32,000 bases of DNA from Candidatus Nitrospira inopinata (lineage in GTDB: Bacteria; Nitrospirota; Nitrospiria; Nitrospirales; Nitrospiraceae): assembly GCF_001458695.1 (NCBI RefSeq), contig NZ_LN885086.1, positions 540,001 to 572,000 of the forward strand, written 5' to 3'. Positions within the stretch are counted from its first letter, which is position 1. Every line of letters begins with the position of its first letter. A program made the position numbers and the translations under genes. Below are positions 430-19,998 of this stretch, one piece after another. The notes beneath the pieces were generated by a model. It was not told the DNA's origin and did not search any database. It worked only from the letters and a program-made list of their open reading frames with translations.

Positions 430-1326
430 ATGAATGTTTTGCAGGAACTCTGGGGCTTGATGAAAGGATGGTTCAACGCTCCGCTGTTCGAAATCGGCAC
501 GGCCCCCGTCACCCTATGGACGATCGCTTCCTTGGTCGTACTGTTCATCCTTCTCCTTTGGTCCACCCGGAAGCTCAAAAACTGGATCGTCCTGACGCTC
601 CTCGCCAACAGCAAAATCGACATCGGTGTCCGGCAAGCCACCGGCTCGATCGTCCGCTACACCGTCATCGCCATCGGCTTCGTCGTGATTCTCCAATCGG
701 TCGGCATCGACCTCAGTACGATCACGGTCCTGGCCGGCGCATTGGGGATCGGCGTCGGCTTCGGCCTGCAAACGATCACCAACAATTTGGTCAGCGGCCT
801 GATCCTTCTGTTCGAACGGCCGATCAAGATCGGCGACCGCATCGAGGTGGGACAGATCACGGGAGACGTCGTGGACATCTCGGCCCGCGCCACGACGGTC
901 ATCACCAACGATAACATCGCGATCATCATTCCCAACGCCGAGTTCATCAGCTCCAAAGTGATCAATTGGAGCTATACGACCAGGGACGTGCGATTCAACT
1001 TCCCCGTGCGGGTTTCTTATCGAGAAGATCCGGAACGGATACGCCGCCTCTTACTGGAGGTGGCACACAGTCATCCCGGAGTGCTCAAAGAGAGGAAACC
1101 GGACGTGCTGTTTCAGGAGTTTGGAGAGAGTTCGCTGCAGTTCATCCTCCGCGTGTGGACACGGGACTACACCGACCGTCCCGGCGTGCTCCGAAGCGAG
1201 CTGTATTACGCCATCAGCAAAACATTCCGCGAGCACGGCATCGAGATTCCTTATCCGCAACACGACATCCACATCAAGGACGGCAGTCTGACGGTCATGA
1301 CGCCCGAGCCGCCGACTTCGTCCTAA
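430..1326 (+). CDS. MscS-family small-conductance mechanosensitive channel
   Basis: SD GGAGAG lies 4 nt upstream of ATG 430. N-terminal TM helices are followed by the MscS pore/beta-domain signature LQTITNNLVSGLILLFERPIKIGDRIEVG..GDVVDISARATTVITNDNIAIIIPNAEF. Confidence 0.85.
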   Translation: MNVLQELWGLMKGWFNAPLFEIGTAPVTLWTIASLVVLFILLLWSTRKLKNWIVLTLLANSKIDIGVRQATGSIVRYTVIAIGFVVILQSVGIDLSTITVLAGALGIGVGFGLQTITNNLVSGLILLFERPIKIGDRIEVGQITGDVVDISARATTVITNDNIAIIIPNAEFISSKVINWSYTTRDVRFNFPVRVSYREDPERIRRLLLEVAHSHPGVLKERKPDVLFQEFGESSLQFILRVWTRDYTDRPGVLRSELYYAISKTFREHGIEIPYPQHDIHIKDGSLTVMTPEPPTSS

Positions 1327-1431
1327 GGAGCCGGAGCGCGCAGGGGCGACTCCCCTTTCACTCGCCACGGACGATCGGTGGACAATCGATAGGCGGAAAG
1401 TGCGGGGACCCGATTCCGCCAGGGGAACGGC

Positions 1432-2715
1432 TCAGCGGGCGACGCGCACGGCCCTGACGATCTTGGCGCCCTTGACCTGTTCCAAAAATCGCTCCGTCGG
1501 AACGGACAGATGCATGACCTGCACTTCCTGCCATCCTTCGTTGACCGCCCCTTTGCGGCCGTGCATCTCGTTCACCCACTGGTCAATGTGCTCTTCGGTA
1601 GTGCCTTCGTTGAAATTGACCCAGAAGAGAAACGGCTGGGACATCGCTTGCGCATCGCTCGACGCCGACTGATCATTCGACTGTTGGGCCGTCATGATGG
1701 TTTCCTGCTGCGGCATGGCGCCTTTCGAGACATCGACCTCCGTGGCCTTCAGTCGTTTCATGAGATCCTTGTTCTGCTCGACCAATCCGGCCATTTCTTT
1801 GGACAGCCGCTCATTGGCCACGGTCAAACTGCGGATTTCGGCCTCGAGTTGCTGGTCCATTTGCGTTTGACTGATGAGCAACTCCGCCATCCGCTCGACA
1901 TCACGCCCGCTTTTCTTTTGCCGCTGTTCGATTTCCCGCCTCACCGTCACCATGCCGGATGCGACGGTTTCCTGAGCGGACGACAATCGGGCGATCGCCG
2001 ATTGCAACTCGACCATGCCTCGCTGCTGAGACTGGACGGTGCTCACGGCTTCGGCTTGTACCCTTGCGAGGGTATCGATTCGCTGTTCGAGCTTTGTCGC
2101 TTCGGCCCGCGTGACGGCCAGAGAGGAGCGTTCTCCGTTCATCCAGTCACTGAATCGATCGGCCGCCAACCAAAGAACCACGATCGCCAGCGCGACCTGT
2201 GTCACAATGGCGACGCGGGCTGAAACAGTCGTAGTCTCAAACGGACGGAGGGGCGAGGCTCCGACCATCGCTCTCACGAACCGACGCCATGGATCAGGTG
2301 CGGGATGGTACACGGCGCTCACCGACCCGCCTCGAGCAGTGTTGTGGATAGAGAGCTCGACCGAGTCCCGCCGCAGAGGAACGCGGGCGAACCGAACTCC
2401 CTGCTCAGGCGCCGAAAGTCCTCCAAGGAGGACGCCGTCTTCCGATCGGAGCCCGACGTGATCCACGCGGCCTTGGCAGTGGAACCGAACGACTGCTTCC
2501 GCCTCTTTTCCGCTCAACCATCCGACACGCTGCTCGTTCACAAAGACCTGAATCGGATGGTCCCGCATTTCATCGGATGGGCCGCAGGTTGAACGGAGAG
2601 CCCCTTCCTCCAGCCTCTTGAGCAAGCTCGCCCGATAGTCGTCGAGATCTTGATTCTGTTCCATGGCATCCTCCATGGCCTCCTGACGCACGTTCCTTCC
2701 TTCCCTCCTACGCAT
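1432..2715 (-). CDS. Hypothetical single-pass membrane protein: ~170-aa cytoplasmic N-domain, one TM helix (VAIVTQVALAIVVLWLAA), a long coiled coil and a small C-terminal domain. Likely co-transcribed partner of the upstream sigma-like gene
   Basis: Long ORF starting 12 nt after the stop of the upstream gene on the same strand. Heptad-like Q/E/L/R-rich stretch (LEQRIDTLARVQAEAV...LEAEIRSLTVANERLSKEMAGLVEQNKDLMKRLK). The start is ambiguous: ATG 2715, 2676 or 2664. The last has GGAGG 5 nt upstream. Confidence 0.6.
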   Translation of the reverse strand: MRRREGRNVRQEAMEDAMEQNQDLDDYRASLLKRLEEGALRSTCGPSDEMRDHPIQVFVNEQRVGWLSGKEAEAVVRFHCQGRVDHVGLRSEDGVLLGGLSAPEQGVRFARVPLRRDSVELSIHNTARGGSVSAVYHPAPDPWRRFVRAMVGASPLRPFETTTVSARVAIVTQVALAIVVLWLAADRFSDWMNGERSSLAVTRAEATKLEQRIDTLARVQAEAVSTVQSQQRGMVELQSAIARLSSAQETVASGMVTVRREIEQRQKKSGRDVERMAELLISQTQMDQQLEAEIRSLTVANERLSKEMAGLVEQNKDLMKRLKATEVDVSKGAMPQQETIMTAQQSNDQSASSDAQAMSQPFLFWVNFNEGTTEEHIDQWVNEMHGRKGAVNEGWQEVQVMHLSVPTERFLEQVKGAKIVRAVRVAR

Positions 2716-2727
2716 AAACTTCTCGGC

Positions 2728-3609
2728 TCACGGCCGCACCCGTATGTCCAGCTTCGGCTTTTCGATAGTCAGGGTTTTCGTCCTTCCAAGCCCCCACGCT
2801 ATCTGAATGCAATCGACACACAGTCCCAGATGCCACAGCCGATAGTCGCAGCCGTATCCCTCAGAAAACATGGATTCCCATTCCCTGCGCGAGAGACAGG
2901 GATAGTGATCCGGCTCGCTTTTCCGATAATGGTCTTGAGCTAATCGGATGATTCGCTCGGCCTCGTGGTTCAACTGCTGGCGAGACCGCTCTGCTCTGGC
3001 GATCAGCCCTCCCAACTCATCGTCGGTCATGCCGATTTCTTCCATCGTCCGTCGCCATCCTGATTCCCGCCAGCGGCGGAAGTTTTTGTAAATGCGCTGG
3101 CCTTCCGACTCGGTCAGGCCTGTCACCGAGATAACGTCCCGCGGCCCCATGCCGTAGCAATGGTAGTACAGCGCGATCAGCGCGTCCCGGCTGATCACCG
3201 CCCGCGCCGCAAGCCCGTCAAGAAACCGTCCCAGCACGGTGAGCAGCCCCGTGTGATAGCAAAACGGTTCCGGCCGGCTGTGCTCCTTTGCCACGAACGA
3301 ATCAAGCAAAAACAACGGGCGACAGGGCACCTCGCTGCGTCCATAGACCATGAATCGTTCCAGATATTCCGCGCTCCAGCGGAGCACGAATTTCTCATGG
3401 GCCGTGTCCTCGTTCCACTGGCCGGTTTCCTTGAGAAACCGCCTCGTGTGGTTTCTTGTCCTCTCAAGCAGAATCGGCAGGGCTTGCGAGACAAGCCGAT
3501 CGAACTCCTCCGGAGTTGATACGGCCTCTTCGAGTCGGCCGAAAGCCGCTGTGCGGTCGGACATGGTCTGTTCCCCGCCGTCGATGAACTTTGGGACTAT
3601 GATATTCAT
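2728..3609 (-). CDS. Divergent ECF-sigma-like protein with a C-terminally fused zinc anti-sigma (ZAS, HLxxCxxC) motif
   Basis: GGAGG lies 4 nt upstream of ATG 3609. There is a region-2-like stretch (EEFDRLVSQALPILLERTRNHTRRFL...DTAHEKFVLRWSAEYLERF) and a region-4-like HTH (ALIALYYHCYGMGPRDVISVTGLTESEGQRIYKNFRRWRE). The C-terminal PC-x21-HLGLCVDC occupies codons 2809-2832 and matches the C...HxxxCxxC pattern of RsrA-type anti-sigma domains. The functional call is inference from weak motifs. Confidence 0.5.
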   Translation of the reverse strand: MNIIVPKFIDGGEQTMSDRTAAFGRLEEAVSTPEEFDRLVSQALPILLERTRNHTRRFLKETGQWNEDTAHEKFVLRWSAEYLERFMVYGRSEVPCRPLFLLDSFVAKEHSRPEPFCYHTGLLTVLGRFLDGLAARAVISRDALIALYYHCYGMGPRDVISVTGLTESEGQRIYKNFRRWRESGWRRTMEEIGMTDDELGGLIARAERSRQQLNHEAERIIRLAQDHYRKSEPDHYPCLSRREWESMFSEGYGCDYRLWHLGLCVDCIQIAWGLGRTKTLTIEKPKLDIRVRP

Positions 3610-3637
3610 GACGCCTCCGCTCGGAAAGATGCCGCAT

Positions 3638-3674
3638 TGGACAAATGTTCACGATCCCGGCGGACTTTTGTCCA
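3638..3674. promoter_or_regulatory. Inverted repeat TGGACAAA-N21-TTTGTCCA in the divergent intergenic region; candidate operator
   Basis: Perfect 8-bp arms at 3638-3645 and 3667-3674, read directly from the sequence. It lies between the sigma-like gene (minus strand) and the small peptide gene (plus strand). On the minus strand it overlaps a GTGAAC-N17-TCTTTC element that resembles ECF -35/-10 spacing. Confidence 0.25.
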
Positions 3675-3771
3675 TTGCCCGCTCCGCCGTGTGATCGGTA
3701 AAAGTGACGTCCACATCGTGCCATCGCAGATGGCCATTCATCACTCCTACACCTAACCCATGGAGGGTATC

Positions 3772-3939
3772 ATGAACCGTTCGAGCGGATTCTTGGCGTT
3801 GGCGGCATTTCTTTCATTCAGCCTGATCGCTCCCTTGTCGTTTGCCGGTGAGGAAGAAAAGAAAGAAGAAAAGAAGGGCGGCCACGTGGTGGTGTTGAGC
3901 GACGACAAGCAGGATGAAAAGAAGGAAGGCGGGAAGTAG
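3772..3939 (+). CDS. Small secreted peptide (55 aa): signal peptide followed by a 29-aa Lys/Glu-rich mature part
   Basis: Below the ORF-track cutoff; translated by hand as MNRSSGFLALAAFLSFSLIAPLSFA|GEEEKKEEKKGGHVVVLSDDKQDEKKEGGK. GGAGGG lies 4 nt upstream of ATG 3772. An in-frame ATG at 3760 is also possible. A strong hairpin terminator follows 15 nt after the stop. Confidence 0.45.
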   Translation: MNRSSGFLALAAFLSFSLIAPLSFAGEEEKKEEKKGGHVVVLSDDKQDEKKEGGK

Positions 3940-3953
3940 GTCTTGGCGGACCG

Positions 3954-3985
3954 GAGAGACGCGGCCGACGGCCGCGTCTCTCTTT
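3954..3985. terminator. Intrinsic terminator hairpin between the convergent small peptide gene and hypE
   Basis: GAGAGACGCGGCC (3954-3966), loop GAC, GGCCGCGTCTCTC (3970-3982): a perfect 13-bp GC-rich stem followed by TTT on the plus strand. There is no T-run in the minus direction, so termination of the hyp operon here is less certain. Confidence 0.6.
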
Positions 3986-4011
3986 CACGAAGATGCCACC
4001 ACGGCAAGTCC

Positions 4012-5067
4012 TCAGCAGATTCTCGGTAACTGTTCACCCGACAACAGGTCCAAGATCCGATTCGTCCCGACCACCGTCCGCAGAATCACCGGCGGTGAAC
4101 GGCGATCCGAGACCGAACCAATCAGAGCCGCCTTTCCAGACACCGCATGCCTTCGCATCACAGCCAGTGCCGGCTCAATCTGTGATGCCGGCACCATCGC
4201 GACAAATCGTCCTTCGTTCGCCACGTACAGAGGATCGAGGCCCAACAGTTCACAGGCCCCACGCACCGGGTCAAGGACGGGGATAGCCATTTCGTCAATC
4301 ACAATGCCGACCCCGGCCGCTTCAGCAATTTCATTCAAGGCGGAGGCCAATCCACCGCGCGTCAGGTCCCGCAGACAATGAATCTCGACACCACTGACAA
4401 TTAGATCTTCCACAACCCCATGCAACGGCGCTGAATCACTCTGCACCTCACCGGCAAACGCCAGTCCCTCCCGCACGCTCAACACGGCCACACCATGGGA
4501 ACCCACGTCGCCACTGATCAGGATCGCGTCTCCAGGCTGAACCATTTGGGGTGAGAGACAAACACCGGGCGGCACCACACCGATCCCAGCCGTATTGATG
4601 AAGATGCCGTCGCCCTTCCCCCGATCGACGACCTTCGTATCTCCGGTGATGATCGACACCCCGGCCGCCCGCGCCGCCTCGGCCATCGACGTCACGACCT
4701 GACGAAGGACATCCAGACTCAGACCCTCCTCCAGAATAAATCCTGCGCTCAGGTACAACGGCTTGGCCCCGCACATGGCGAGATCGTTGACCGTGCCATA
4801 AACCGCAAGCCTGCCGATGTCACCGCCTGGAAAGAACAAGGGACGCACCACATAGGAATCAGTCGTGAAGGCCAGCGTGCCCTTCTCCACCGGCCACGTA
4901 GCGCCATCGTGCAAGAGGGAGAGCAGGGGATTATCAAAGGCATGGACGAACACCTCTTGAATCAGATCACGCATCAGGCGGCCTCCGCCGCCATGGGCCA
5001 ATTGAACGGTTTTTTTTTCGATAGCCGGCAAGGGACAGGATGGTTCAAAAGATGTGTCGTTCATCAT
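4012..5067 (-). CDS. hypE: Hydrogenase maturation protein HypE (carbamoyl dehydratase, AIR-synthase fold)
   Basis: Contains N-terminal LAHGGGG and PurM-like repeats. The diagnostic C-terminal PRIC motif ends the protein (..GEQLPRIC*). Confidence 0.95.
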
Positions 5068-5238
5068 GATCGTCTCTCATTGGACGGGTGAGAGGCCCAC
5101 AATTCTGCCCGTGAGCGACAGTTGCCAGCTCCCGGTTGTCAGCTCATCACAATTCAAGGCTCCTCACCCCGTTTAAAGCTCGTCACCATTTGAAACTGAG
5201 AACGTGGAACTGACACCTTCTTGTCTTCTGCTTGCCGC

Positions 5239-6345
5239 TCACCCGGCGCCGCTTTTCCTGTAGCGATAATAGGCGGAGCAGGCCCCTTCGCTCGACACCA
5301 TCGGCGCGCCCAACGGCCTCTCCGGCGTGCACCTCGTGCCGAAGGCGGGACAGTCTGGTGGTTTGAGCAGACCTTGCAACACCAGGCCGCTCTGACACTC
5401 CGGATGTTCTTGCGCGGCCGGCCCATACTGAGCCAGCACGTCGCGAAACCGCACCGTCGCGTCGAATTCCGCATAGGCCGACTTGATGCGGAGCCCGCTT
5501 CGGGGAATCTCACCGATGCCCCGCCAGATACGTGATGACGGCTCAAATACCTCATCCACAACAGCTTGGGCCTGTCGATTCCCCTCACGGCTCACCGAGC
5601 GCACATATTGGTTCTCAACTTCGGCCCGGCCTTCTTCCAACTGGCCGACCACCATCGCGATCCCCTCCAACACATCCACCGGCTCAAACCCCGTCACGAC
5701 GATGGGCACTCGATATCGCGCCGCAATGGCCTCATAGTCTTCGTAGCCCATGACCGTACACACGTGACCGGCAGCCAGAAACCCCTGAATGCGATTCTGC
5801 GGAGAGGACAGGATCGCCTCCATCGCCGGAGGGACCAGCACATGGGCGACCAGCAGGCTGAAATTGGGAAGGCCCATCGTTTTGGCTTGGACCACCGCCA
5901 TCGCCCACGGGGGCGCGGTGGTCTCGAATCCCACCGCAAAACAGACAACCTGCCGATGAGGATTCACGCGAGCCAGTTCCAGTGCATCCAGCGGCGAATA
6001 GATGATCCGCACATCCGCCCCCTCCGCCTTGGCACCGAAAAGGTCGCCCTGTGAACCAGGCACCCGCAACATGTCGCCAAACGAACAGAGAATCACACCC
6101 GGTTGCCGCGCCAGCCGGACCGCGTCATCGATCAAGCTGACCGGCGTGACACAGACCGGACACCCAGGCCCATGGACAAGCGTGAGGTTCTTGGGCAACA
6201 GTTCGTCCAGGCCGAACCGCACGATCGAATGGGTCTGTCCCCCGCAGACCTCCATGATCGTCCAGGGTCGGCTGACCGTCTTCTTGATCCGCTCCGCGAG
6301 CGCCGTTACCACGGCGCGATCGCGAAATTCATCGACGTATTTCAC
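5239..6345 (-). CDS. hypD: Hydrogenase maturation protein HypD (Fe-S scaffold)
   Basis: Starts MKYVDEFRD. Contains the [14 protein letters not shown] and FETTAP motifs and the C-terminal Cys cluster ([22 protein letters not shown]). Confidence 0.95.
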
Positions 6346-6377
6346 CTGGATTTCACACCCCCTCTTCCTGTAGCAGA

Positions 6378-6635
6378 TTACTGCTCTTCCCCTTCCACTC
6401 TGTCTTTCACTTCCATCGCTGCCAGCTCGGCATAGGCCTCCAACGTCCGCCTGGCCTCTTCTTCATTGAGCCTGCTGATCGCGAAGCCGACGTGCACCAT
6501 CACGTAATCGCCGACGGTGGCATCAGGCACGAGCGCCAATGAGACGGTTTTCGTCACGCCGCCGAATGAGACCGTGGCGGTGCGGAGCGGATCATCGGCG
6601 ATCTGCAAGACCTGTCCGGGAACCGCAAGACACAT
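6378..6635 (-). CDS. hypC: Hydrogenase assembly chaperone HypC
   Basis: Has the canonical N-terminus MCLAVPGQV, with the essential Cys directly after Met. ATG 6635 is preferred over the GTG at 6638 used by the ORF track. AAGGGG lies 7 nt upstream. It begins directly after the hypF stop (6639-6641). Confidence 0.9.
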
Positions 6636-6638
6636 CAC

Positions 6639-9020
6639 TTACCCCTTTCGTTCACGATGCCCATCACGAACCTGACAGGCAGCGACCACCGCCTGCCCCA
6701 CCGACAACCCCCCATCGTTGGGCGGCACCAGTCGATGGCGATAGACCGTCAAATCGGCTTTTTCTAACCCCTGTCGGGCCAAGGACAGCAACAGCCCGTT
6801 CTGAAAGCAGCCGCCGGTCAGGACAACACGAGGGAGCCCCGCTGCTCGTGCAACGTGCACCATGGCATCGACCAATCCGCTATGAAATCGAGCCGCAATC
6901 CGTTCGGGACTCACCCCCTGCTGAAGATCCCGTACCACCTCACTCACCATGGGACGCCAATCAACCATTAGGCGGTTCTCGCCCGCATCGGTCTTTACAA
7001 CTTCGAAAGAATAGGCCCCCGTCTCTCCGCATGCTTGCCCCCGTTCCGCCGCATATTCGACCGCCATCGCCGCCTGGCCCTCAAAGGAAGGATGGTGGCA
7101 CAGACCGGTCAGCGAAGCGATGGCATCGAACAGCCGCCCCATACTCGTCGTCCAGGGTGAGACGACATTGGATGTAAGCAGAGCTGCCAGCCGTTCACGC
7201 TCCATAGCCGTCACCTGCCATGAGGGGAGCCGGCGAGCCGGCATCTGTTCACCCATCAGGTCCCACAACAACGAAGCAGCGGATCGTGTCGGCTCCTTCA
7301 CGGCCGCCTCTCCTCCCGGCAGTCGAAAGGGTCGGAGATGAGCAAACCGCTCAAACCTGTCGAGCGTGACGATCAGGAATTCCCCACCCCACACGACCCC
7401 GTCCGTTCCATACCCCGCTCCATCCCAGGCGATGCCCAAGACCGGACCATCCAGTCCGTGCTCCGCCATGCAGGACACCACGTGGGCATGGTGGTGCTGA
7501 ACGGGAACCACCGGCACGGACAGCCGCGACGCCAGCTCACGGGCGAAGATTGACGAGCGATAATCGGGATGGAGATCACAGGCAATGAGTGTGGGAGTGA
7601 CGTCCAGCAACAGTTGAAGATCCTCGACCACTTGCCGGAAGGCATGGTCCGCCTCCAGGGTTGAGAGATCGCCAAGGTGTTGGCTCATCCACAGGCGATC
7701 CTGTTGGAGCAAGGCCACCGTATTTTTGAGATGCCCGCCAAGGGCAAGCACCGTTTCCTTTGTCCGATTGGCTTCCCCCCTTACACGGATGGGCCGCGGC
7801 GCATAGCCTCTGGCTCGGCGAAGGACCATGGTCGCATCGAGTCCGGCTCTTCTCCCTTCCTCAACACCCACCCGCACCACCGAGTCATCGACCGGTCTTG
7901 CGATCGGCCGATCATGGACCAGGAACGCATCGGCAATCCCGCCCAGTCGTCTCACCGCCTCTCGCTCGTCGGTCACGATCGGCTCCTCCGACCGGTTGCC
8001 ACTGGTCGCCACCATCGGTTGTCGGAGTTCCTGCATGAGCAGATGATGCAAGGGCGTCGTCGGCAAGAGGGCACCTATAAAGGGATTGCCCGGTGACACC
8101 GCCGGTGCCAGCTTACTCTCACACCGCCGTCGGACCAGGACGATCGGCGCCTGCGGCGAGAGGAGCAGTGCCTCCTCGTCCGGTGACAGAAGACAATGGT
8201 CCCGTATCCCCTCCAGCGACGGGAACAGCACGGCGAACGGTTTGTCCGGCCTCTGTTTTCTCACCCGCAGTCGCCGCACCGCCTCATCCGATCCGGCGTC
8301 CACCCACAGTTGAAACCCGCCCAGTCCCTTGATCGCGACGATGCGCCCTTCTCGGAGCAAGGCTCCCGCATGACTCAGCGCTTCTTCACCACGCTGGATC
8401 TCACGGCCTTGCTCGTCCCACAACGCCACCTGGGGTCCACAAGCGGGGCAGGCGATCGGCTCGGCATGAAAACGCCGACTCCCGACAGCGTCGTATTCGG
8501 CTTGGCAAGCGAAGCAGAGTGGAAAATCCTTCATCGTCGTGCGGCGCCGGTCATAGGGCATGTCGGTGAGAAGGCTATAGCGGGGACCACACTGGGTGCA
8601 GGTGATAAACGGATAGCGAAACCGGCGATCGGACGGATCGTTGAGTTCACGCAAGCACTCGGCGCAGACGGCCAAATCCGGCGGGATCACGAGAGCTCGG
8701 TGGCCATCCTCTTCGCTGGCATGAATGGAAAAATTCGTTTGATCACAGGGAGACATCTCTCGATAGGTGAGGGTCTCCACCAAGGCCGAAACAGGAGCGT
8801 CGGTCAGAAGGCGATGCCGAAACTGTTCGATAGAAGCCGCAGGTCCTTCCGTCTCTATCACCAGACCGTTCGTCGTATTGCGGACCCACCCCCCCAGATC
8901 CAACTCGCGGGCCAGACGATAGACAAAGGGACGAAACCCCACCCCCTGCACCGTTCCCTCCACCTCAATCCGAATCCGCCGAACCCGCCGCCTCGTCGCC
9001 TTGTTCCTGGCCACGGTCAT
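6639..9020 (-). CDS. hypF: Carbamoyltransferase HypF
   Basis: Contains an acylphosphatase domain (IEVEGTVQGVGFRPFVYRLA), two CxxC...CxxC zinc fingers (CAECLREL..CTQCGPRYS; CFACQAEY..CPACGP), then YrdC-like and Kae1-like domains. ATGA overlap with the hypA stop at 9017-9020. Confidence 0.95.
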   Translation of the reverse strand: MTVARNKATRRRVRRIRIEVEGTVQGVGFRPFVYRLARELDLGGWVRNTTNGLVIETEGPAASIEQFRHRLLTDAPVSALVETLTYREMSPCDQTNFSIHASEEDGHRALVIPPDLAVCAECLRELNDPSDRRFRYPFITCTQCGPRYSLLTDMPYDRRRTTMKDFPLCFACQAEYDAVGSRRFHAEPIACPACGPQVALWDEQGREIQRGEEALSHAGALLREGRIVAIKGLGGFQLWVDAGSDEAVRRLRVRKQRPDKPFAVLFPSLEGIRDHCLLSPDEEALLLSPQAPIVLVRRRCESKLAPAVSPGNPFIGALLPTTPLHHLLMQELRQPMVATSGNRSEEPIVTDEREAVRRLGGIADAFLVHDRPIARPVDDSVVRVGVEEGRRAGLDATMVLRRARGYAPRPIRVRGEANRTKETVLALGGHLKNTVALLQQDRLWMSQHLGDLSTLEADHAFRQVVEDLQLLLDVTPTLIACDLHPDYRSSIFARELASRLSVPVVPVQHHHAHVVSCMAEHGLDGPVLGIAWDGAGYGTDGVVWGGEFLIVTLDRFERFAHLRPFRLPGGEAAVKEPTRSAASLLWDLMGEQMPARRLPSWQVTAMERERLAALLTSNVVSPWTTSMGRLFDAIASLTGLCHHPSFEGQAAMAVEYAAERGQACGETGAYSFEVVKTDAGENRLMVDWRPMVSEVVRDLQQGVSPERIAARFHSGLVDAMVHVARAAGLPRVVLTGGCFQNGLLLSLARQGLEKADLTVYRHRLVPPNDGGLSVGQAVVAACQVRDGHRERKG

Positions 9021-9367
9021 TCCTCAACCACGACCTCGTGCACCACCACCTCCGGAGCCTCCTGCCCCTGGAGCATTGTTCCACCGCAGCGGGGGCAGAG
9101 GGCCGCCCCTTCAAGGGTTCCATCCCAGCGGCAACGAGGGCACCAGCCCTTTCCATCAAATGGCCTTATTTCTACCGTCGCCCCCTCAAGCCTCGTGCCT
9201 CGTGCCGCCAATTCAAACGATGTCTGAATGGTGGAGGGCTCATGTTCCATCATATGGGAACCGAGACGCACCTTGAGCCGCACCGTCAAGGGCTTGGCTC
9301 CAGGGCTACTCGCCAACCCTGCTTCCACGGCCTTCACGACCTGTTTCATGAGGTGGAGCTCGTGCAC
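9017..9367 (-). CDS. hypA: Hydrogenase nickel-insertion protein HypA
   Basis: A GTG start at 9367 gives the canonical MHELHLMKQVV N-terminus, with GAGGAA 5 nt upstream. Zinc site CPRC-x12-CPRC. The 144-aa ORF-track version (to 9451) would add an Arg/Gly-rich extension overlapping the protease gene. Confidence 0.85.
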   Translation of the reverse strand: MHELHLMKQVVKAVEAGLASSPGAKPLTVRLKVRLGSHMMEHEPSTIQTSFELAARGTRLEGATVEIRPFDGKGWCPRCRWDGTLEGAALCPRCGGTMLQGQEAPEVVVHEVVVEE

Positions 9368-9891
9368 TGAGATTCCTCGACTTCTTGTGTGATCCGCGCA
9401 ACTACGTGCCCCACCGCCTCTTCGACCGGTTGCGACAGGGATGGTCCCCATCCTGTCTCGGCCACTTCGATCCCATAGATGATCACCCTCTCGGGCAGCC
9501 GCCCCAAGGTCCTGCCCAACTCAATCGTCTCCGCCACGCCAACACCATGGGTCGATCGACAGGTCAGGTTCCGCGCAATCGGGCCGGTCGAGGCATCCAA
9601 GCGATGGATTGTCCCTGGAGGCTTCCCGCTGGACACCGCGTCGATGAGCAGAACAACCAGCGCGCCGTCCATCAGATCGAGCAGGTCTGTTCCCGCCTGT
9701 TGAGCCTCGATGACCTGAGCCCCTTTGCCGATCTTCTCGCGGAGCCGACGCGCCGCCACAAGGCCTGCGGCATCGTCGCCGCGCCACTCGTTGCCGAGGC
9801 CGATGATGCGTACGCTCGTTCTGTCTGACAGTCGGCAGGAACGCCCGACGTCGTGCGGCATGGCATCATTGCGAAGAGCTTCGGTCATCAT
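9346..9891 (-). CDS. [NiFe]-hydrogenase large-subunit C-terminal endopeptidase (HoxW/HycI family)
   Basis: Core motif VRIIGLGNEWRGDDAAG...DAV...G..H, directly downstream of the large subunit. ATG 9891 (MMTEAL..) has GAGG 8 nt upstream and lies 13 nt after the large-subunit stop. The ORF-track TTG at 9927 and the ATG giving MPHDVG.. are alternative starts. Confidence 0.8.
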   Translation of the reverse strand: MMTEALRNDAMPHDVGRSCRLSDRTSVRIIGLGNEWRGDDAAGLVAARRLREKIGKGAQVIEAQQAGTDLLDLMDGALVVLLIDAVSSGKPPGTIHRLDASTGPIARNLTCRSTHGVGVAETIELGRTLGRLPERVIIYGIEVAETGWGPSLSQPVEEAVGHVVARITQEVEESQCTSSTS

Positions 9892-9904
9892 CCGGCCCGC
9901 CTCA

Positions 9905-11227
9905 TCAGAGATCACGCTGAAGCTCAAGCTTCAAGAAGTGGGTCGCGCAGGAGATACAGGGATCATAGCAACGGATTACCTTCTCGCAGGCCAGAGCGAT
10001 CGCGTCATCCGATTCAGTCAACAGACGAGGGAGGAACAGCCGCAGGTCCTCTTCGATTCTCCCTTGGTTTTGCGACGTGGGGGGAACGATCTTAGCCTCA
10101 CGGATTACACCGTGCTGATCGATTCGATAGCGGTGGCAGAGAATCCCGCGTGGCGCCTCGGTGCAGGCCATCCCCACGCCGGCCTTCACCGTGACCGGCA
10201 ACGAGGAAACTGGCGGTGGCTCATACAAATCGATCAGCCGTAGGGCCTCCTCCAGCGCGTAGAGCATCTCCACGGAACGGGCGACAATTCCTTGAAAGGG
10301 ATTGCGAAGCGGCAACGACAGCCCGACGTCCGCCCATACCTCCATTACCGCTGGAGGCAACCGATCACAATTGAGATTCACGCGGGCCAGGGGGCCGACC
10401 TGATAGGGAGCGCCGTGCAGCCTGCAATGGAGCGCGGTGGAATAGGGCGCCTGCTGTTCTTCACAATGCCGCTCGAACTCGTCGGCGGTAATATCAAGGC
10501 CGTGGGACGAGACGATCCGTCCCTCATTAAACGGATATTCGCGGTCATGACGCAGCGCAACGAAGGTGTAGTCGGGAACAAAATCCGGATACGAAAACGA
10601 GGCGACCCACCGGATCGTGTCGATCGCCGCGTCGCGGGCCCACAACAGCTCGTCTCTGAGCCCTTCCAATTCACGTCGGCTCGGAACACGAGAAAACCCG
10701 CCGACCTTCACCGACACAGGGTGCACGGAGCGGCCGCCCAACAGCGTCATGAGGGCGTTGCCCGCCTTCTTGATCCGCAAGCCCCTCGTCACGGCGGCCG
10801 CGTGATCTTTCGCCATTGCGATGCCGCTCTCATAACCCAGAAAATCCGGCGCGTGTAAAAGATACACGTGCAAGGCGTGGCTTTCGATCCATTCGCCGCA
10901 ATAGAGGAGCCGCCGGAGATCCCGCAGCGGCCCTTCGACGCGCAGGCCGAAGATCCGCTCGATCGCGTGGACGGCGCTCATTTGGTAGGCGACCGGACAG
11001 ATCCCACAGATTCTGGCGACAATGTCCGGCACTTCCTCATAATGCCGGCCTTGCAAAAAGGCCTCGAAGAACCGAGGCGGCTCAAAGATCTTGAGTTCGA
11101 CATCGTGCACGGCACCCTGTTTCACCGTGACCCGGAGCGCTCCTTCCCCTTCGACGCGGGCAATCGTGCCGATGGCGATCGTTCTGGTGCTGTTCGCCGG
11201 CTGGGAAACAGGGCTCTCTTCGCTCAT
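9905..11227 (-). CDS. hyhL: [NiFe]-hydrogenase large (alpha) subunit, cytoplasmic group 3b (sulfhydrogenase/NAD(P)-coupled) type
   Basis: N-terminal Ni-binding motif [11 protein letters not shown] and C-terminal DPCISCATH, followed by a 10-aa extension ([10 protein letters not shown]) that would be removed by the endopeptidase. The short ~440-aa length is typical of group 3. ATGA overlap with the small subunit at 11224-11227. Confidence 0.93.
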
Positions 11228-12066
11228 GACCCCTCACTGTTCGTATGTTCAACCGCCCAGGCTTCGCTCTCGCGTCGGAACGATGCCGCAGCGCCGTTGA
11301 TACCACGAAATCGTCGCACGACTTCGATCGGGATCAGCCCAAGCCGGTCGTGGAACTGTTTGGCCAACGACGAGGTATTGGGCGGGTGACCGGCTCCCTT
11401 CACCATCCCCTCCGCCGGGCCGAAGCAACCGTAACAGTCTCGCCCCATGCTCGGACAGATCGCGCCGCACCCGCCGCTGGTCACCGGTCCCAAACAAGGC
11501 ATCCCCTTGGCCACCACCACGCACACGTTTCCTCGCCGTTTGCACTCGAGACAGACACTGTCCGTCGGGATGCGAGGCCGGACTCCCGCCAACAGATCGG
11601 TGATGACGCGCCGCAACTGGTCTTTATCAATCGGGCAGCCCCTCAGCTCGTAATCGACCTTCACATGATCGGCAATCGGCGTGCTGGTGGCGAGCGTCCG
11701 AACGAAGTCCGGCCTGGGATAAACAACCTGTTTGTACGATTCAATGTCGGCCCAGTTGCGCAGGGCCTGAATGCCCCCAGCCGTGGCGCAGGCGCCGATC
11801 GTCATCAAAACCTTGGCCTGCTCCCGCACGGCCTTGATTCGCTCCCTATCCTCTTCAGTCGTGATCGACCCCTCGACCAGGGCGATGTCGTAGGGACCTG
11901 GGTCCATGCGGCTTGACGCCTCCGGAAAGTAGGCGATATCCAGCGCCTCCCCCAAGAGGAGCAATTCGTCTTCGAGGTTCAAGATGCTTAATTGGCAACC
12001 GTCGCAGGAGGCAAACTTAAAAACCCCCAATTTTGGCTTTTGCTGTCCTTTCATCAGAAGCGCCAT
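11224..12066 (-). CDS. hyhS: [NiFe]-hydrogenase small (delta) subunit, group 3 type, no Tat signal
   Basis: Contains the NuoB-like proximal cluster motif [10 protein letters not shown], further Cys clusters (GACATAGG; [11 protein letters not shown]; [19 protein letters not shown]) and no twin-arginine leader. Confidence 0.9.
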
Positions 12067-12075
12067 CGTCCTGCC

Positions 12076-12909
12076 TCAGACCCCCGGTCGCCCCAACCAC
12101 GATTCGATCCGATCGTATCGCATCACCGGTCCATCCTTGCACACAAAATAGGGCCCCATCTGACAGTGGCCGCAGAGACCGATTCCACATTCCATATGCC
12201 GCTCAAGCGACACATACACGGACGTCGCGGGCAAGCCCCGACGAAGCAGAATCGGCACGCCCACCCGCATCATGATCTCCGGTCCGCACATCAACACGAC
12301 GGTCTGGACAGGATCTAACGACACCATCTCGAACAGCTCCGTCACCACGCCCACGTGGTAGCGCCAGAGTTTCCCTGGCCGGTCGCTCGTCAACAACACC
12401 TCCGTGTCGGGCTGTCGCCCCCACCGTTCGAACCGTTCATGAAAGACCAGATCTTCCGGCGTCTTGACTCCATGGAGGATCTTGACGGCTCCGTACTGAT
12501 TGCGCCTACGGAAAATGTATTCGATGGCGCCCACCACCGGCGCACACCCAAGGCCGCCGGTCACGATGACAAGGTCATGCCCCCGCGCTTCGTCAAGCGG
12601 CCAGCCCCTCCCAAACGGACCGCGAATCCCCAAGACATCGCCGGCCTGCAACCGTGCAACGGCATTCGTCACCCGACCCACGGCCCTGATCGTGTGGTCC
12701 AGATACTCCGGCTCATCCGGGTCCGACACGATGGAAATCGCCACTTCGCCGACCCCGAACAGAGAGACCATGTTGAACTGCCCGGCGGCGAATCGATATT
12801 GCCGCCGCTCGGCTTCATCGTTGATCCGGATCCGATAGGTGTGGATGTCGGCCGTTTCCCGCATCTTCTCCACAATCGTCGCCGCATGAATCAGGTGGGG
12901 ATTGATCAT
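12076..12909 (-). CDS. hyhG: Hydrogenase gamma subunit: PyrK/ferredoxin-NADP-reductase-like FAD/NAD(P)-binding protein with a C-terminal 2Fe-2S site
   Basis: Contains the FAD-binding R-x-Y-S-like stretch (HTIRAVGRVTNA), the NAD(P) site LVIVTGGLGCAP and the C-terminal CGIGLCGHCQ. The start is set at ATG 12909 (MINPHL..), which forms an ATGA overlap with the beta-subunit stop. The ORF-track start at 13026 would overlap hyhB by 120 nt. Confidence 0.88.
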   Translation of the reverse strand: MINPHLIHAATIVEKMRETADIHTYRIRINDEAERRQYRFAAGQFNMVSLFGVGEVAISIVSDPDEPEYLDHTIRAVGRVTNAVARLQAGDVLGIRGPFGRGWPLDEARGHDLVIVTGGLGCAPVVGAIEYIFRRRNQYGAVKILHGVKTPEDLVFHERFERWGRQPDTEVLLTSDRPGKLWRYHVGVVTELFEMVSLDPVQTVVLMCGPEIMMRVGVPILLRRGLPATSVYVSLERHMECGIGLCGHCQMGPYFVCKDGPVMRYDRIESWLGRPGV

Positions 12910-14042
12910 GGGTTGTCGGACCTCCGTGCCGCCGATCGTCCATCGGACGCCAGCAAGGCGGAGAGTTCTTCTCTCACATCGATCCCCACCGGACACCAGG
13001 TGATGCAGCGGCCGCAGCCGACACAACCGGACATGCCAAATTGGTCATGCCAGGCCGCGAACTTGTGGGTGAGCCACATCCGGTACCGGTCCTTGATCAT
13101 CGGACGGATGTTCTTGCCGTGGATATAGCCATGCTCGTGGGTAAAGCAGGAATCCCACAGTCTGGTCCGCTCCGTGTGCTGCCCATCGAGAGTCGGTGCA
13201 TCCTCGATCGTGTGGCAAAAGCAGGTGGGGCAGACCATCGTGCAGTTGGTACAGGCAAGACAACGGGCCGCGACATCATCCCACCGTGGATGGTCATAGG
13301 CGTCGTAGAGCGCCTGTGGCAAGGCTGCCTGCTCTTGAAGGCGCCCTTGGCTTTCGGCGCAGGCGCCAATTCGCTTCGACGCCTCGGCCAACAGAGTTTC
13401 GGAAGCCGGCGACACTGGCAATTCCGTCAGAACCGCCTTGCCGGCTTCGCTGCCCGCTTCGATCAACAGGACGTCATCCAGTTCCGTCAGAGCAAGATCA
13501 AATCCGTTTTGGGCACGCGGTCCCGTCTTCATGGACGAGCAGAAACAGGTCGGAAGGACCCTCGTGCAATTGACCGCAATGACGAAGAGTCCTTCACGCC
13601 GACTGGCGTAAGGGGAGTCCCGATAGGGTCCTCTCAAAAAGATCTGATCTTGGATAGCCAGCCCGGCCACATCACAGGGCCGAGCGCCCAAGAGAGCGAT
13701 CTTTTCCGGCTTGGGAAGCCGAGGATAAATCGACAATCCGCCGTTCGTACGTTCAATCTGAAGCAACGGCTCGCGCGGGGCAAAAGCGAAGGGTTTCAGC
13801 GACTGGGGCCCATGGACGATTCCGAAGATCTCGCCCGTACCGGTCTGCTCCAACCGATACCGCCCCGGTTCCTGGTGGTCTCGCCAACCGATCGGCAGAT
13901 CAGAAACTCGTGCGATGGTGTCCCACACCACCGCTCCGTCACGCAGGGTGGGGCCGACGACGCGGTGCCCTTGGGCACCCAGAAGATCGAGCAAACGTTT
14001 GAGATCGGCCGACGGAAAGGCGCCGTGGTCGCTTGAGGACAT
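12906..14042 (-). CDS. hyhB: Hydrogenase beta subunit: AsrA-like 4Fe-4S dicluster electron-transfer protein
   Basis: Two ferredoxin-type motifs, CLACTNCTMVCPTCFC and CVGCGRCITWCPVG, plus additional Cys clusters. It is the first gene of the beta-gamma-delta-alpha order typical of Pyrococcus-type sulfhydrogenase operons. GGAG lies 9 nt upstream of ATG 14042. Confidence 0.88.
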   Translation of the reverse strand: MSSSDHGAFPSADLKRLLDLLGAQGHRVVGPTLRDGAVVWDTIARVSDLPIGWRDHQEPGRYRLEQTGTGEIFGIVHGPQSLKPFAFAPREPLLQIERTNGGLSIYPRLPKPEKIALLGARPCDVAGLAIQDQIFLRGPYRDSPYASRREGLFVIAVNCTRVLPTCFCSSMKTGPRAQNGFDLALTELDDVLLIEAGSEAGKAVLTELPVSPASETLLAEASKRIGACAESQGRLQEQAALPQALYDAYDHPRWDDVAARCLACTNCTMVCPTCFCHTIEDAPTLDGQHTERTRLWDSCFTHEHGYIHGKNIRPMIKDRYRMWLTHKFAAWHDQFGMSGCVGCGRCITWCPVGIDVREELSALLASDGRSAARRSDNP

Positions 14043-14654: not shown

Positions 14655-15503
14655 TTAAGAATGACGGGACTTCGCCCCAAGGAACCGAGGCCGATCCCGC
14701 ACCGAGACCATCTTGACCAGATCCCGAACCGACAGCACGCCGACGATCTTGCCGTTCTCCCTCACGGCCAGGTGGCGCACGCCCCGCTCGGCCATCACGC
14801 GGCTGGCATCACGGATCGTCCGGTTGACGTCGATGCTCAGAAGCGGCGAGCTCATCATCGAGCTGACACGAATTGTTCCTCCATCCCGATTCGAGGCCGC
14901 CCCCTTCCGAATCAAATCGCTCTCGGTGACGATCCCGACCAGCTCTCCCGCCTCGACCGTCAACAAGGAGCCGATGCGTTTGTCTCGCATCTGCCGAGCC
15001 GCTTCAAGCACGGACGCCTCGCTCCCGATCGTCGCCAGGTCGGTGGCCATCAGGACGCTGAGCGGTCGATAGACGCGATCCAGTTCGCTTACGGGACCGC
15101 CCTCCGTGTCCACGAATGATCGGACCAGATCCCGCACGGAGATCAAGCCGGCGACTTCTCCTCCCTCCACCACGCAGAGGTGGCGAATGTGATTGGTCTC
15201 CATCATATGACTGGCGTCCAACATGGTGCGATCGCTCGCGATCGTGATGATGGGGCTATTCATCACCTGATCCACCATCGTGACCGTGGGATCCGTCCCC
15301 GCGGCGATCACCTTCCGCACCACGTCCGTTTCCGTCACGATTCCGATCGGTCCTCGACCCGGCTCGCCGGACTCGACCAAGACGCAACCGACGCGCCGGA
15401 CTCCCATCCGTTCCGCCGCGAACGACACGGTCGTGTCCCGCGGAACGACCTCCAAATAGCGACGCATGAAATCCTTAATGAGTCCGCCTTCCTGTCCACT
15501 CAT
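14655..15503 (-). CDS. Stand-alone protein with four CBS domains (two Bateman modules)
   Basis: Four repeats ending GIVTETDVVRK, GLISVRDLVRS, GIVTESDLIRK and GVLSVRDLVKM. The start is set at ATG 15503 (MSGQEGG..), which has AGGAG 5 nt upstream. The ORF-track ATG 15590 has no SD. Confidence 0.85.
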   Translation of the reverse strand: MSGQEGGLIKDFMRRYLEVVPRDTTVSFAAERMGVRRVGCVLVESGEPGRGPIGIVTETDVVRKVIAAGTDPTVTMVDQVMNSPIITIASDRTMLDASHMMETNHIRHLCVVEGGEVAGLISVRDLVRSFVDTEGGPVSELDRVYRPLSVLMATDLATIGSEASVLEAARQMRDKRIGSLLTVEAGELVGIVTESDLIRKGAASNRDGGTIRVSSMMSSPLLSIDVNRTIRDASRVMAERGVRHLAVRENGKIVGVLSVRDLVKMVSVRDRPRFLGAKSRHS

Positions 15504-15805
15504 CTCCACTCCTCGCTCCCGTTGAATGGCCTCCTCCCGGCGCAAGCCGGGAACGCCTCGGCCTTCTTGCGCCTCGGCCCATTTGCCCATTTTGATGGGC
15601 CGTCACTATACCTGATTATGATGAAACTCGCACCTGAGCCCATCGGGCTATAGCCGGGCCATAGCCAAAAAATCGGCTTCTCGACGAGAAGGCAACGCGG
15701 CGATACGACGCACGTTGCGACCGCGATCGTCCTCCATCGTCCGCTCCGCAGCCGAACCGCCTTTCGGTTGAATCAACGCGGAGTGTTGGTTACTCTCTAG
15801 CGGCA

Positions 15806-18800: not shown

Positions 18801-19363
18801 ACCTGCTCGGCGGAGGGCTTGGCGGCGAGGTCACGGGCACGGGCGGCAAGGCCTTTCGCGTGGACCTCCGGATGGAAGCAGCGGGACTGGACACGAATCA
18901 CCTGCTGCCGGCGGGCGAGCAGATCCCCGGCGACAGTCTGATCGATGCCACCGTGACTGGAACCCTCGCCTTCGACGACCAACAGGGCCGCCTCGATTTT
19001 GGCAAGAGCGTATTGGACCTATCGCTCACCAGAATCGGGCGTCACACATTGGACCGATTGCTCCGGTTTCTCGACCCGACCGGCGGCAACCCGTCGATCA
19101 TCGGCGCCCGTTCCGCAGTGAAGCTGGCGAATCCAGCTTCCGTCCGCATCACGATGTCCAAGGGGCTGGTCGCCATCCGCATACGATTTCAGGAGGGACT
19201 GCTCTCCCGTTTTGAGATGGACCGAATTCCAGCGGGCCAGATGAAACAGATCCGCGACCTCACGGCGACCATCCCACAATGGAACGATCTTCGTCGTCTC
19301 ATGGCCCTGTTGGGAGCAGAGCGATATGGAGTGGATCAAGCAGGCGGGTTTGTTTTAGAGTGA
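15806..19363 (+). CDS. AsmA-superfamily, YdbH-like intermembrane (inner-to-outer membrane) bridge protein
   Basis: N-terminal membrane anchor MKPLKILAVACVALLIILAGTVAAI followed by ~1150 aa of repetitive beta-rich sequence. The C-terminal part (..VHNLAMNLLGGGLGGEV..NHLLPAG..SVRITMSKGLVAIRIRFQ) resembles the YdbH C-terminal region as I remember it. A DUF1318/YdbL-like gene follows 4 nt downstream, as in the E. coli ydbH-ynbE-ydbL operon. Confidence 0.7.
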   Translation: MKPLKILAVACVALLIILAGTVAAIRFFFPADQIRKQLERTLSEHLQGTVRIAALEWELLHGIRLGNIEIERNGVPLARFDRLSLRYRLLPLLHGTVAVDELALIQADVFVDLALFPAPSQAEPPPRRDEPVVLPTLPLSVNIESIRIEHSHVTMVGHDDLRLTLRDVTLTSRLHAGPKTADLSGTLDIADIEAFVNQHRWRLPLHLAFTLSVDFPMERLVLERVEIRCDPVISLAATGRVDHLVSTPTVTFSVQESQLDLEGLVSLAQPFLPPPLAGARLAGTISPSLTIAGSQTDRGFDGAIRLDINGRDIRGSAPSFGLSLESTSFQVRTGEIPVHANRPGPIHADLSVNMTGITAGAASVRDLAFGLQADRSEAGRLAAHVTMKGLVSAALEPAGPRLSEPLTLDVETSGDETALSFSLTRVEATVGDLVSLVANGTVGPLGEAGKQAQEQRPFSLRAAVRSDAGKLFRALPPSLRQGFGLTAHGAPQTASLNVTGSLDADWRPLRAEATLSLDAADLHAVHVVSAEQRLEGTLDRLTLALRTAYHAKSESLKGTVDGLIRLSHLRQGTTATVGTVSVTLNGDINGRVGSDFAVRRLTASNRLTSEIRDVRYETPTMTGTFNHLTASAKAHGDLIDGPYVLNEARLTVGQLLDGRVSGTFNPRTQRFAFDIAVPSLNVAEIQHHMTGPAVESLAAVKPSGQLSMRIGGSGTIPTPDDVAQLTIPVQASAQVALQHVGGSFQGHGITGATGTISLSVEPPEQQSTKRQVITTSWKLKTDRLDLGGDAPVKHLENLALALDGSIESFDRLTLERFVLSADGLDASIDTELSGIKRFLNRKEGAPWLEGLGPLFVKSNLQATLDLDRFADAVRSFGVAGSGRAGLALVLNKKERGPLDVRVTVLPHRLSIAQREQHVEDLDGAIELRKVLQWMSPSDKQAREAEFRPTGLLPDLHLTAPARRDIRIRLVKAGPIEVRNLSGHLFLDQNRLVVHNLAMNLLGGGLGGEVTGTGGKAFRVDLRMEAAGLDTNHLLPAGEQIPGDSLIDATVTGTLAFDDQQGRLDFGKSVLDLSLTRIGRHTLDRLLRFLDPTGGNPSIIGARSAVKLANPASVRITMSKGLVAIRIRFQEGLLSRFEMDRIPAGQMKQIRDLTATIPQWNDLRRLMALLGAERYGVDQAGGFVLE

Positions 19364-19985: not shown

Positions 19986-19998
19986 TCTGAGATGGTCT

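Follow-up and report, generated by a model that had tools for sequence, protein, structure and literature searches.

Genes A and B of Candidatus Nitrospira inopinata belong to an uncharacterised module of two genes that is found almost only in nitrite-oxidising Nitrospira and has a conserved cis-element of its own. The two genes lie in a stretch of 32,000 nucleotides (nt) of the N. inopinata genome (GCF_001458695.1, NZ_LN885086.1, positions 540,001-572,000, forward strand), which was analysed as a whole and is called the window below. Gene A encodes a protein with a conserved Cys/His site, gene B a membrane protein, and an inverted repeat of the form GGACAAA-N20/21-TTTGTCC accompanies gene A in nearly all related loci. 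We read the pair as a lineage-specific Nitrospira module in which protein A would be a zinc-binding, DNA-binding regulator of the repeat and protein B a membrane sensor or tether, and we give this reading a probability of about 0.45, slightly below an even chance. A first-pass annotation had instead described protein A as similar to an extracytoplasmic function (ECF) sigma factor that carries its own zinc-binding anti-sigma (ZAS) motif and is coupled to a membrane coiled-coil protein. The sigma/anti-sigma label for protein A is not supported, since every homology test was negative.

Distribution and linkage of genes A and B

An exact-sequence look-up identified the products of genes A and B as "hypothetical" proteins of Ca. 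Nitrospira inopinata, and a literature search with the accession numbers and locus tags of genes A and B found no paper that mentions them. A word-indexed search returned 332 relatives of gene A. The 120 of these that were listed were all unnamed or "hypothetical", and the organisms named among them were all Nitrospira, Nitrospiraceae or Nitrospirota. When one genome per species was searched, 199 stretches encoded a gene A relative, and nearly all of the 80 listed were labelled Nitrospira, Nitrospiraceae or Nitrospirota, N. moscoviensis included. An exhaustive hidden Markov model (HMM) search of 1.84 billion representative proteins gave 43 matches, about nine of them full length, and no link to other families. 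Within the genus, protein A is conserved along its whole length at 63-94% identity. Between N. inopinata and N. moscoviensis, identity is 63% for protein A (orthologue NITMOv2_2497) and 42% for protein B. No relatives of gene B were found outside the Nitrospira-type group.

Linkage was assessed in 83 loci from related genomes. Gene B was directly downstream of gene A in all 83, with a gap of mostly 40-80 nt, while the flanking genes varied; the A-B pair is therefore a conserved unit, and the coupling to a membrane coiled-coil gene that the first-pass annotation had proposed held up. The loci around divergent gene A homologues, down to 25% identity, are referred to as L084-L088 and L090. In one of these, the homologue P0125 (L086:5001-5933) has a STAS-domain protein (anti-sigma-antagonist fold) encoded upstream (L086:4175-4600), and several PAS histidine kinases and response regulators are encoded just upstream as well.

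An inverted repeat accompanies gene A

Alignment of the DNA upstream of gene A gave the consensus CAAYGGACAAAA-N17/18-ATTTGTCCAATGC. The pattern GGACAAA-N20/21-TTTGTCC was found upstream of gene A in 80 of the 81 loci for which upstream DNA was available (three further rows, for L057, L067 and L082, are artefacts that report the second site described below). The spacer measured 21 nt in most loci and 20 nt in 17, and its sequence was not conserved, while the core GACA/TGTC of the repeat was invariant. The window contained one exact match to GGACAAA-N21-TTTGTCC, as compared with 0.01 expected by chance. Across 647 kb from related loci, 95 occurrences of the 11-mer half-site were beside gene A and 5 were elsewhere.

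About 52 loci, to which the window does not belong, contain a second copy of the repeat just after gene B, TGGACATATT-N17-TTTTGTCCGTTGAG (for example L060:6347-6381). A conserved gene for a GT4 glycosyltransferase (MRIAQVAPLWESVPPKLYGGTERIV...) follows this copy at a distance of 200-300 nt and is likely a co-regulated target.

The repeat was also found with divergent members of the family. L084 (25% identity, 40% G+C) has AGACAAA-N21-TTTGTCC 75 nt upstream of its gene A homologue, L087 has a variant of the repeat upstream together with a B-like gene, L085 has a copy before the next gene, and in L090 the order is gene B, gene A, repeat, GT4 gene. In L088 the two arms have changed in a symmetric way (CGACAAA / ATGTCGA), and the next gene, which encodes a GerE-type regulator, is preceded by another repeat, a perfect one.

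Promoter geometry and the gene A start codon

Judged by sequence, the half-sites of the repeat look like they abut the -35 position of sigma-70-type promoters, a common location for activator sites. A -10-like hexamer follows TTTGTCC at a distance of 25 nt in three contexts, namely leftward from the first repeat (TAnAA), rightward from it to gene A (CACAAT), and between the second repeat and the GT4 gene, again in the rightward direction (TAGCAT). For the leftward context and for that of the GT4 gene, TTGnnn comes directly after the half-site and is separated from the -10 by an 18-nt spacer. The succession of half-site, TTGnnn, 18 nt and TAnAA before the divergent small gene is conserved across loci, and the second repeat is followed by TTGAGC-N18-TAGCAT and then by the GT4 gene. 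A strict built-in sigma-70 promoter scan of positions 1300-4050 found no promoter.

The box GGAGGCACAAT(G/A), at 3607-3620 of the window and at the matching position in 80 loci, is conserved even in loci that have lost the ATG. Upstream of gene A, the box GGAGGCACAATG has two possible readings, a -10 element or a ribosome-binding site with start codon. CACAATA is kept without an ATG in 23 loci, in some of them with stops or frameshifts before M16, which makes it doubtful that GGAGGCACAATG serves solely as a ribosome-binding site with start codon. From these loci and the stops before M16 we conclude that the gene A start codon varies by clade (M1, or possibly M6 or M16) and that the box probably has a second role, perhaps as a -10 element. 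In the N. inopinata clade, M1 and its GGAGG site are intact.

Protein A and its Cys/His site

Protein A lacks a hydrophobic segment. According to the first-pass annotation, the 293-amino-acid (aa) product ends with C-x21-HLGLCVDC at 2809-2832. These coordinates were confirmed for HLGLCVDC, which represents residues 260-267; the codon of C238, 21 residues ahead of H260, is at 2896-2898. By chance, only about 0.005 HxxxCxxC motifs would be expected in a protein of this size and composition. C238, H260, C264 and C267 were all invariant in 39 close homologues. In 12 divergent homologues, down to 25% identity, H260, C264 and C267 were again invariant, and C238 was replaced once, by a histidine in P0142. 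Cysteine and histidine also alternate at the first ligand among ZAS proteins, where ChrR uses histidine. C254 of protein A is not conserved. The invariance of the ligands, and the fact that the sole swap keeps a metal ligand, indicate that the conserved four-ligand site is real, and it is probably a metal site, as the first-pass annotation had supposed.

A second set of cysteines and histidines (C96, C117, H119, H150 and C151) varies little or not at all within the genus, and H150 alone is invariant in the divergent homologues. This set may be a putative genus-specific second metal or redox site.

AlphaFold with a shallow alignment (39 sequences, at least 64% identity) gave an unusable model of protein A (pLDDT 41). 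With divergent members added, the model reached a pLDDT of 86.7 and a pTM of 0.82 and was all-alpha, with 15 helices. In this model C238 lies ahead of helix 241-250, H260 is at the end of helix 254-262, and helix 265-271 starts at the CxxC. Only 26 residues follow C267, and they are modelled as this single helix of 7 residues (265-271) with an extended tail behind it. Predicted secondary structure and invariant columns point to residues 141-192 as a candidate DNA-binding motif. The family-invariant residues in this segment are R141, D142, A143, H150, Y152, K175, N176, R179, W180 and W185.

Protein A did not belong to any Pfam, NCBIfam, PDB, PHROGs or PADLOC family. A phage or defence origin of the module was considered and rejected, as there was no PHROGs match and PADLOC returned only coiled-coil noise.

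Protein B, the membrane coiled-coil protein

The start codon of gene B that is common to the orthologues is M18 of the longest open reading frame (ORF), at 2664 of the window, with a GGAGG ribosome-binding site; the RefSeq protein is likewise 410 aa long. The first-pass annotation had given a gap of 12 nt between the two genes, which applies to the longest ORF only. From the stop codon of gene A to the shared start M18 of gene B the gap is 63 nt. The domain layout that the first-pass annotation had described for the gene B product (a cytoplasmic domain, one transmembrane helix and a coiled coil, followed by a small domain at the C-terminus) was borne out, except that the coiled coil comprises about 130 and not about 170 aa.

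Protein B has an N-in single-pass topology, with one hydrophobic segment and no signal peptide. The missing signal peptide and an Arg-rich flank before the transmembrane helix suggest that the N-terminal domain is cytoplasmic. By its sequence this domain looks beta-rich. Neither its 141 N-terminal aa nor the family profile matched any Pfam or PDB entry, including those of RskA, zf-HC2 and RseA_N type, and a profile search with the domain found homologues in Nitrospira-type sequence fragments only and none outside. The coiled coil is connected to the C-terminal block by a variable linker. The C-terminal domain, for which no family match was found, is absent from a few orthologues of 341-370 aa, such as that of L001. 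Protein B as a whole matched no family beyond coiled-coil noise.

The divergent small gene

In the window, the signal peptide encoded by the divergent small gene is followed by EEKKEEKK-GGHVVVL. Orthologues contain one to three repeats of (D/E)DKK(D/E)EKK-GGHVVVF(G/S)D. The product has no family match. Its repeated Gly-Gly-His (GGH) recalls the tripeptide of this sequence, which binds copper and nickel. The small gene was present in 30 of 80 assessable loci according to an ORF filter and in 27 of 83 according to tblastn, and it was absent from other lineages. We therefore rejected the peptide as an obligatory third component and regard the gene as an optional neighbour and possible target, not as part of the core of the module.

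Proposed role of the module and alternatives

In the reading that we favour, protein A, a cytoplasmic, all-alpha and probably zinc-bound protein, would bind GGACAAA-N20/21-TTTGTCC. The half-sites would be on one face of the DNA, because the distance between them, about 32 bp, corresponds to three helical turns. At the repeat, protein A would control its own operon and the divergent gene for the secreted GGH-repeat peptide, and in other Nitrospira also the GT4 glycosyltransferase gene next to the module. Protein B would respond to some condition in the envelope or periplasm, and its cytoplasmic domain would control protein A by sequestering or releasing it. The CHCC site of protein A may be structural, or it may be a second input that responds to metal or redox state. 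DNA binding by protein A, its interaction with protein B, zinc binding and the sign of regulation are what we infer from the sequences. DNA binding is supported by the way in which protein and repeat occur and vary together, and by three consecutive helices with the invariant residues K175, N176, R179 and W180.

Several points weigh against this reading. Neither a helix-turn-helix profile nor that of any other DNA-binding domain matched protein A, and a DNA-binding relative was not found among the Foldseek matches. Gene B is missing beside some divergent gene A homologues (L085, L086 and L088), and L086, whose homologue P0125 is 41% identical to protein A, is the only divergent locus with no detectable repeat. 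The full-length conservation of protein A (63-94%) would not usually be expected of a simple repressor and hints at several partners. Finally, another regulator could bind the repeat.

In a bolder form of the same idea, protein A would be the founder of an unrecognised regulator family that binds both zinc and DNA and whose fold is without a relative of solved structure. With protein B, it would constitute a Nitrospira-specific trans-envelope pathway that reads a wide operator and controls envelope genes, namely those for the secreted GGH peptide, which might bind copper or nickel, and for the GT4 glycosyltransferase. We consider this somewhat unlikely. A still more radical version would make protein A a new promoter-specificity factor at the -35 region, unrelated in sequence to sigma-70.

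Alternatively, protein A might not bind DNA at all and might serve as a zinc adaptor, chaperone or enzyme-like partner of protein B, while some other regulator binds the repeat and controls envelope-related genes. The lack of any match to a DNA-binding family or fold would fit, as would the strong conservation over the whole of protein A and the envelope-related nature of the conserved neighbours (secreted peptide, membrane coiled-coil protein, GT4 glycosyltransferase). However, the repeat tracks the gene A family even where gene B, the peptide gene and the GT4 gene are absent (L084, L085, L088), its two arms change together in L088, and the module contains no other conserved regulator gene. 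We regard a role without DNA binding as unlikely.

The first-pass annotation leads to a further alternative, in which protein A would be an extremely divergent sigma-70/ECF factor with the C-terminal CHCC module as a built-in anti-sigma, protein B would be the membrane input, and TTTGTCCRWTG would be a -35-type element used in both directions. The predicted order of helices (four in about 33-110, four in about 125-192, then an extension) would fit sigma-2, sigma-4 and an extension. The element has the same orientation and distance before a -10-like hexamer at gene A, the divergent gene and the GT4 gene, and self-regulation of such a kind is typical of ECF factors. Conservation over the whole length of protein A and the STAS-domain gene upstream of one divergent homologue also speak for this alternative. 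Moreover, there are ECF groups to which a zinc-finger or Cys-rich extension is fused (ECF48/52/53, ECF238; PMC8999054).

The homology tests nevertheless went against a sigma factor. Sigma70_r2 (PF04542), Sigma70_r4/r4_2 and zf-HC2 were not matched at E<=10 in Pfam and NCBIfam by full-length protein A, by three fragments of it (including residues 24-116 as the test for sigma-2 and a 67-aa C-terminal piece as the test for zf-HC2), or by 39 close and five divergent homologues. Single-sequence and profile searches of all PDB sequences with protein A found no sigma or anti-sigma factor, and the HMM search mentioned above linked the gene A family to nothing else. In hhalign comparisons, the family reached a probability of 0.1-0.4% against profiles of RpoE, SigW and SigR. 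As controls, these three ECF groups, composed of real proteins that all contain PF04542 and PF08281 and with 30-37% mutual identity, found one another at 99.4-99.6%. Against sigma-2 of RpoE, SigW and SigR, residues 25-115 scored 10.4 (reversed control 9.2), and against sigma-4, residues 125-195 scored 10.6 (reversed control 11.5). None of the domain-wise comparisons with sigma-2 and sigma-4, which also covered residues 195-293 and 230-293, was better than the reversed-sequence controls.

The structural comparisons had the same outcome. A Foldseek search with the whole model of protein A against 350,542 PDB chains gave a best match at E=1.4, with TM<=0.2 and no sigma factor among the 50 matches listed, and with the same query nothing better than E=1.4 and TM<=0.24, and among the matches listed no sigma factor, was found in either PDB or BFVD. 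Since so few residues follow the CxxC, protein A lacks the other two helices that an anti-sigma domain has. Thus neither profile nor structure comparison supports the stretches that had been likened to sigma regions 2 and 4, and the ECF-sigma-like protein with an on-board ZAS domain is not supported. The lack of significant sigma-70 and zf-HC2 profile matches is an outcome that the first-pass annotation itself had named as refuting its reading. An HxxxCxxC motif and visual sigma-like patterns are insufficient for calling a sigma or anti-sigma protein.

The DNA elements give a mixed picture. ECF promoters have distinct -35 (GGAAC-like) and -10 (CGT-like) elements, and a conserved element does precede gene A and two other genes in a fixed geometry. 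The conserved motif upstream, where the first-pass annotation had suggested looking for a promoter motif, is a symmetric inverted repeat that abuts sigma-70-like promoters and not an ECF -35/-10 pair. The conserved element spans about -45 to -34 as one arm of this repeat, the -10s look like the sigma-70 type (TAnAAT) and not like ECF, and the symmetry of the repeat is kept even without a leftward gene. No ECF sigma gene was found in the window or in the 83 loci, and no sigma gene stands beside gene A. We consider the sigma model improbable; the fixed orientation and distance between element and hexamer, the full-length conservation and the compatible helix order leave it a small probability.

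It is very improbable that the repeat works as a hairpin in RNA or DNA, for instance as an attenuator or leader structure, instead of being bound by a protein: its arms could form a stem of about 10-11 bp near the ribosome-binding site of gene A, but the left arm of the second copy reads GGACATA and the right arm TTTGTCC in about 50 loci, an uncompensated mismatch that argues for half-sites read by a protein, the loop is fixed in length at 20/21 nt and free in sequence, the same element stands ahead of promoters in both orientations, and neither this region of the window nor three related loci had a credible Rfam match (at E<=1 there was a single, sub-threshold one, to sX6, with E=0.1 and 17.7 versus 40 bits).

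In soils, waters and wastewater plants, nitrite is oxidised mainly by Nitrospira, which also include complete ammonia oxidisers, and to our knowledge almost nothing is known about their gene regulation. The module described here is conserved across the genus in the sampled genomes; its protein A has a confidently predicted fold without a match and comes with a ready DNA target and a short list of candidate target genes. If protein A does bind the repeat, this would be a first experimentally tractable Nitrospira-specific regulatory circuit, possibly with a new DNA-binding fold.

Genomic setting

The features of the window are collected in Table 1. The strand of gene A also encodes, upstream of it, hypE, hypD, hypF, a maturation protease and four [NiFe] hydrogenase subunits. 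We take this hydrogenase to resemble the one of group 3b that has been reported from comammox Nitrospira. Downstream of gene B, a gene for an MscS channel runs in the convergent direction. Neither the hydrogenase nor the MscS flank of the module is kept in other Nitrospira.

Table 1. Position of the module and of other features in the window.
Feature	Position	Strand	Basis or remark
Gene A, 293-aa cytoplasmic all-alpha protein	2728-3609	-	ORF; exact database match CUQ65553.1 / WP_062482979.1
Putative zinc (CHCC) site of protein A, C238-x21-H260-x3-C264-x2-C267	2809-2898	-	metal binding suggested by sequence
Candidate helix-turn-helix of protein A, residues 141-192 (helices 141-152, 156-163, 167-192)	3034-3189	-	predicted secondary structure; invariant columns
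Gene B, 410-aa single-pass membrane protein, WP_158023157.1	1432-2664	-	longest ORF 1432-2715, 427 aa
N-terminal domain of protein B, about 146 aa, conserved YRxxLL, NxxRxG and GGLxAPExG motifs	2227-2664	-	alignments
Transmembrane helix of protein B, about residues 164-187 of the 427-aa ORF	2155-2226	-	only Kyte-Doolittle peak >1.4
Periplasmic coiled coil of protein B, about 130 aa	1726-2124	-	weak matches, all to coiled-coil proteins (SMC, GCN4 chimeras, Beclin, bZIP)
C-terminal domain of protein B, about 65 aa (PFLFWV...GWQEV...; PxxFWV...)	1435-1638	-	conserved block
Inverted repeat CAATGGACAAAA-N19-ATTTGTCCAATGC (minus-strand reading)	3634-3677		separates gene A from the divergent small gene
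Candidate sigma-70-like promoter of the small gene, TTGCCC-N18-TAAAAG	3675-3704	+	directly after half-site TTTTGTCC (3666-3673); consensus match only
Divergent small gene, signal peptide and charged (D/E)KK...GGHVVV repeat	3760-3939	+	
hypE, hypD, hypF, HycI-like protease and four-subunit cytoplasmic [NiFe] hydrogenase (large, small, FAD/NAD and Fe-S subunits)	4012-14042	-	
Protein with four CBS domains	14655-15590		
AsmA/YhdP-like 1185-aa protein	15806-19363		before the 2614-aa giant
DUF1318 protein	19368-19985		before the 2614-aa giant
Giant 2614-aa protein, WD40-like PD40 repeats, many TPR repeats, C-terminal CHAT protease-like domain	19960-27804	+	

Comparison with known systems

The Cys/His site of protein A resembles that of ZAS factors (RsrA, which pairs with SigR of S. 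coelicolor, ChrR and RslA) in its CHCC ligand set and its H-x3-C-x2-C signature. The arrangement along the chain is also similar, as in RsrA (PMC4960319), and in the model of protein A, the first ligand is at the start of one helix, the His at the end of the next, and the CxxC right after it. The zinc ligands of RsrA are C11, H37, C41 and C44, so that the spacing between the first two is x25, and its later helices span residues 51-60 and 71-84 (PMC4960319). The x21 spacing of protein A is thus not of RsrA type, as the first-pass annotation had assumed. Protein A further differs from ZAS factors in that it has no zf-HC2 match and only one short helix after the CxxC in place of helices III and IV of the four-helix domain. 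In addition, the motif is C-terminal in a 293-aa protein and not N-terminal on a separate anti-sigma, and there is no adjacent sigma gene.

A ZAS-like zinc finger fused to an ECF sigma factor has already been described for ECF48/52/53 (PMC8999054). Known ECF factors with fused extensions comprise ECF48/52/53, with a zinc finger and transmembrane helices (for example SCO4117), ECF238, with the Cys-rich domain of CorE and CorE2, and OrbS (PMC8999054, PMC5826349, PMC4937300, PMC9023288). The layout proposed for protein A, that of a regulator with an on-board Cys/His module that may sense metal or redox state, is comparable. However, these factors have clear Sigma70_r2 and Sigma70_r4 domains, and none was detected in protein A by Pfam, NCBIfam, hhalign, the PDB profile search or Foldseek.

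The symmetric operator, with its proximal half-site directly upstream of TTGnnn-N18-TAnAAT and beside the gene of the candidate regulator itself, is reminiscent of the geometry of class II activators, dimeric factors that abut or overlap the -35 element. Compared with typical dimer operators, the half-sites here are much wider apart, about 32 bp from centre to centre, which implies an elongated dimer, a tetramer or two monomers, and no known DNA-binding family was detected.

Protein B resembles membrane anti-sigmas of the RseA/RsiW type, and other membrane proteins by which a transcription factor is held, in having an N-terminal cytoplasmic domain, one transmembrane helix and a periplasmic sensor part, and in being encoded directly downstream of its presumed partner. 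In contrast to the RseA/RsiW type, its cytoplasmic domain matches no anti-sigma domain, and its periplasmic part is a long coiled coil with a 65-aa domain outside known families. Taken together, the module is best described as a version of a familiar theme, a regulator paired with a membrane sensor.

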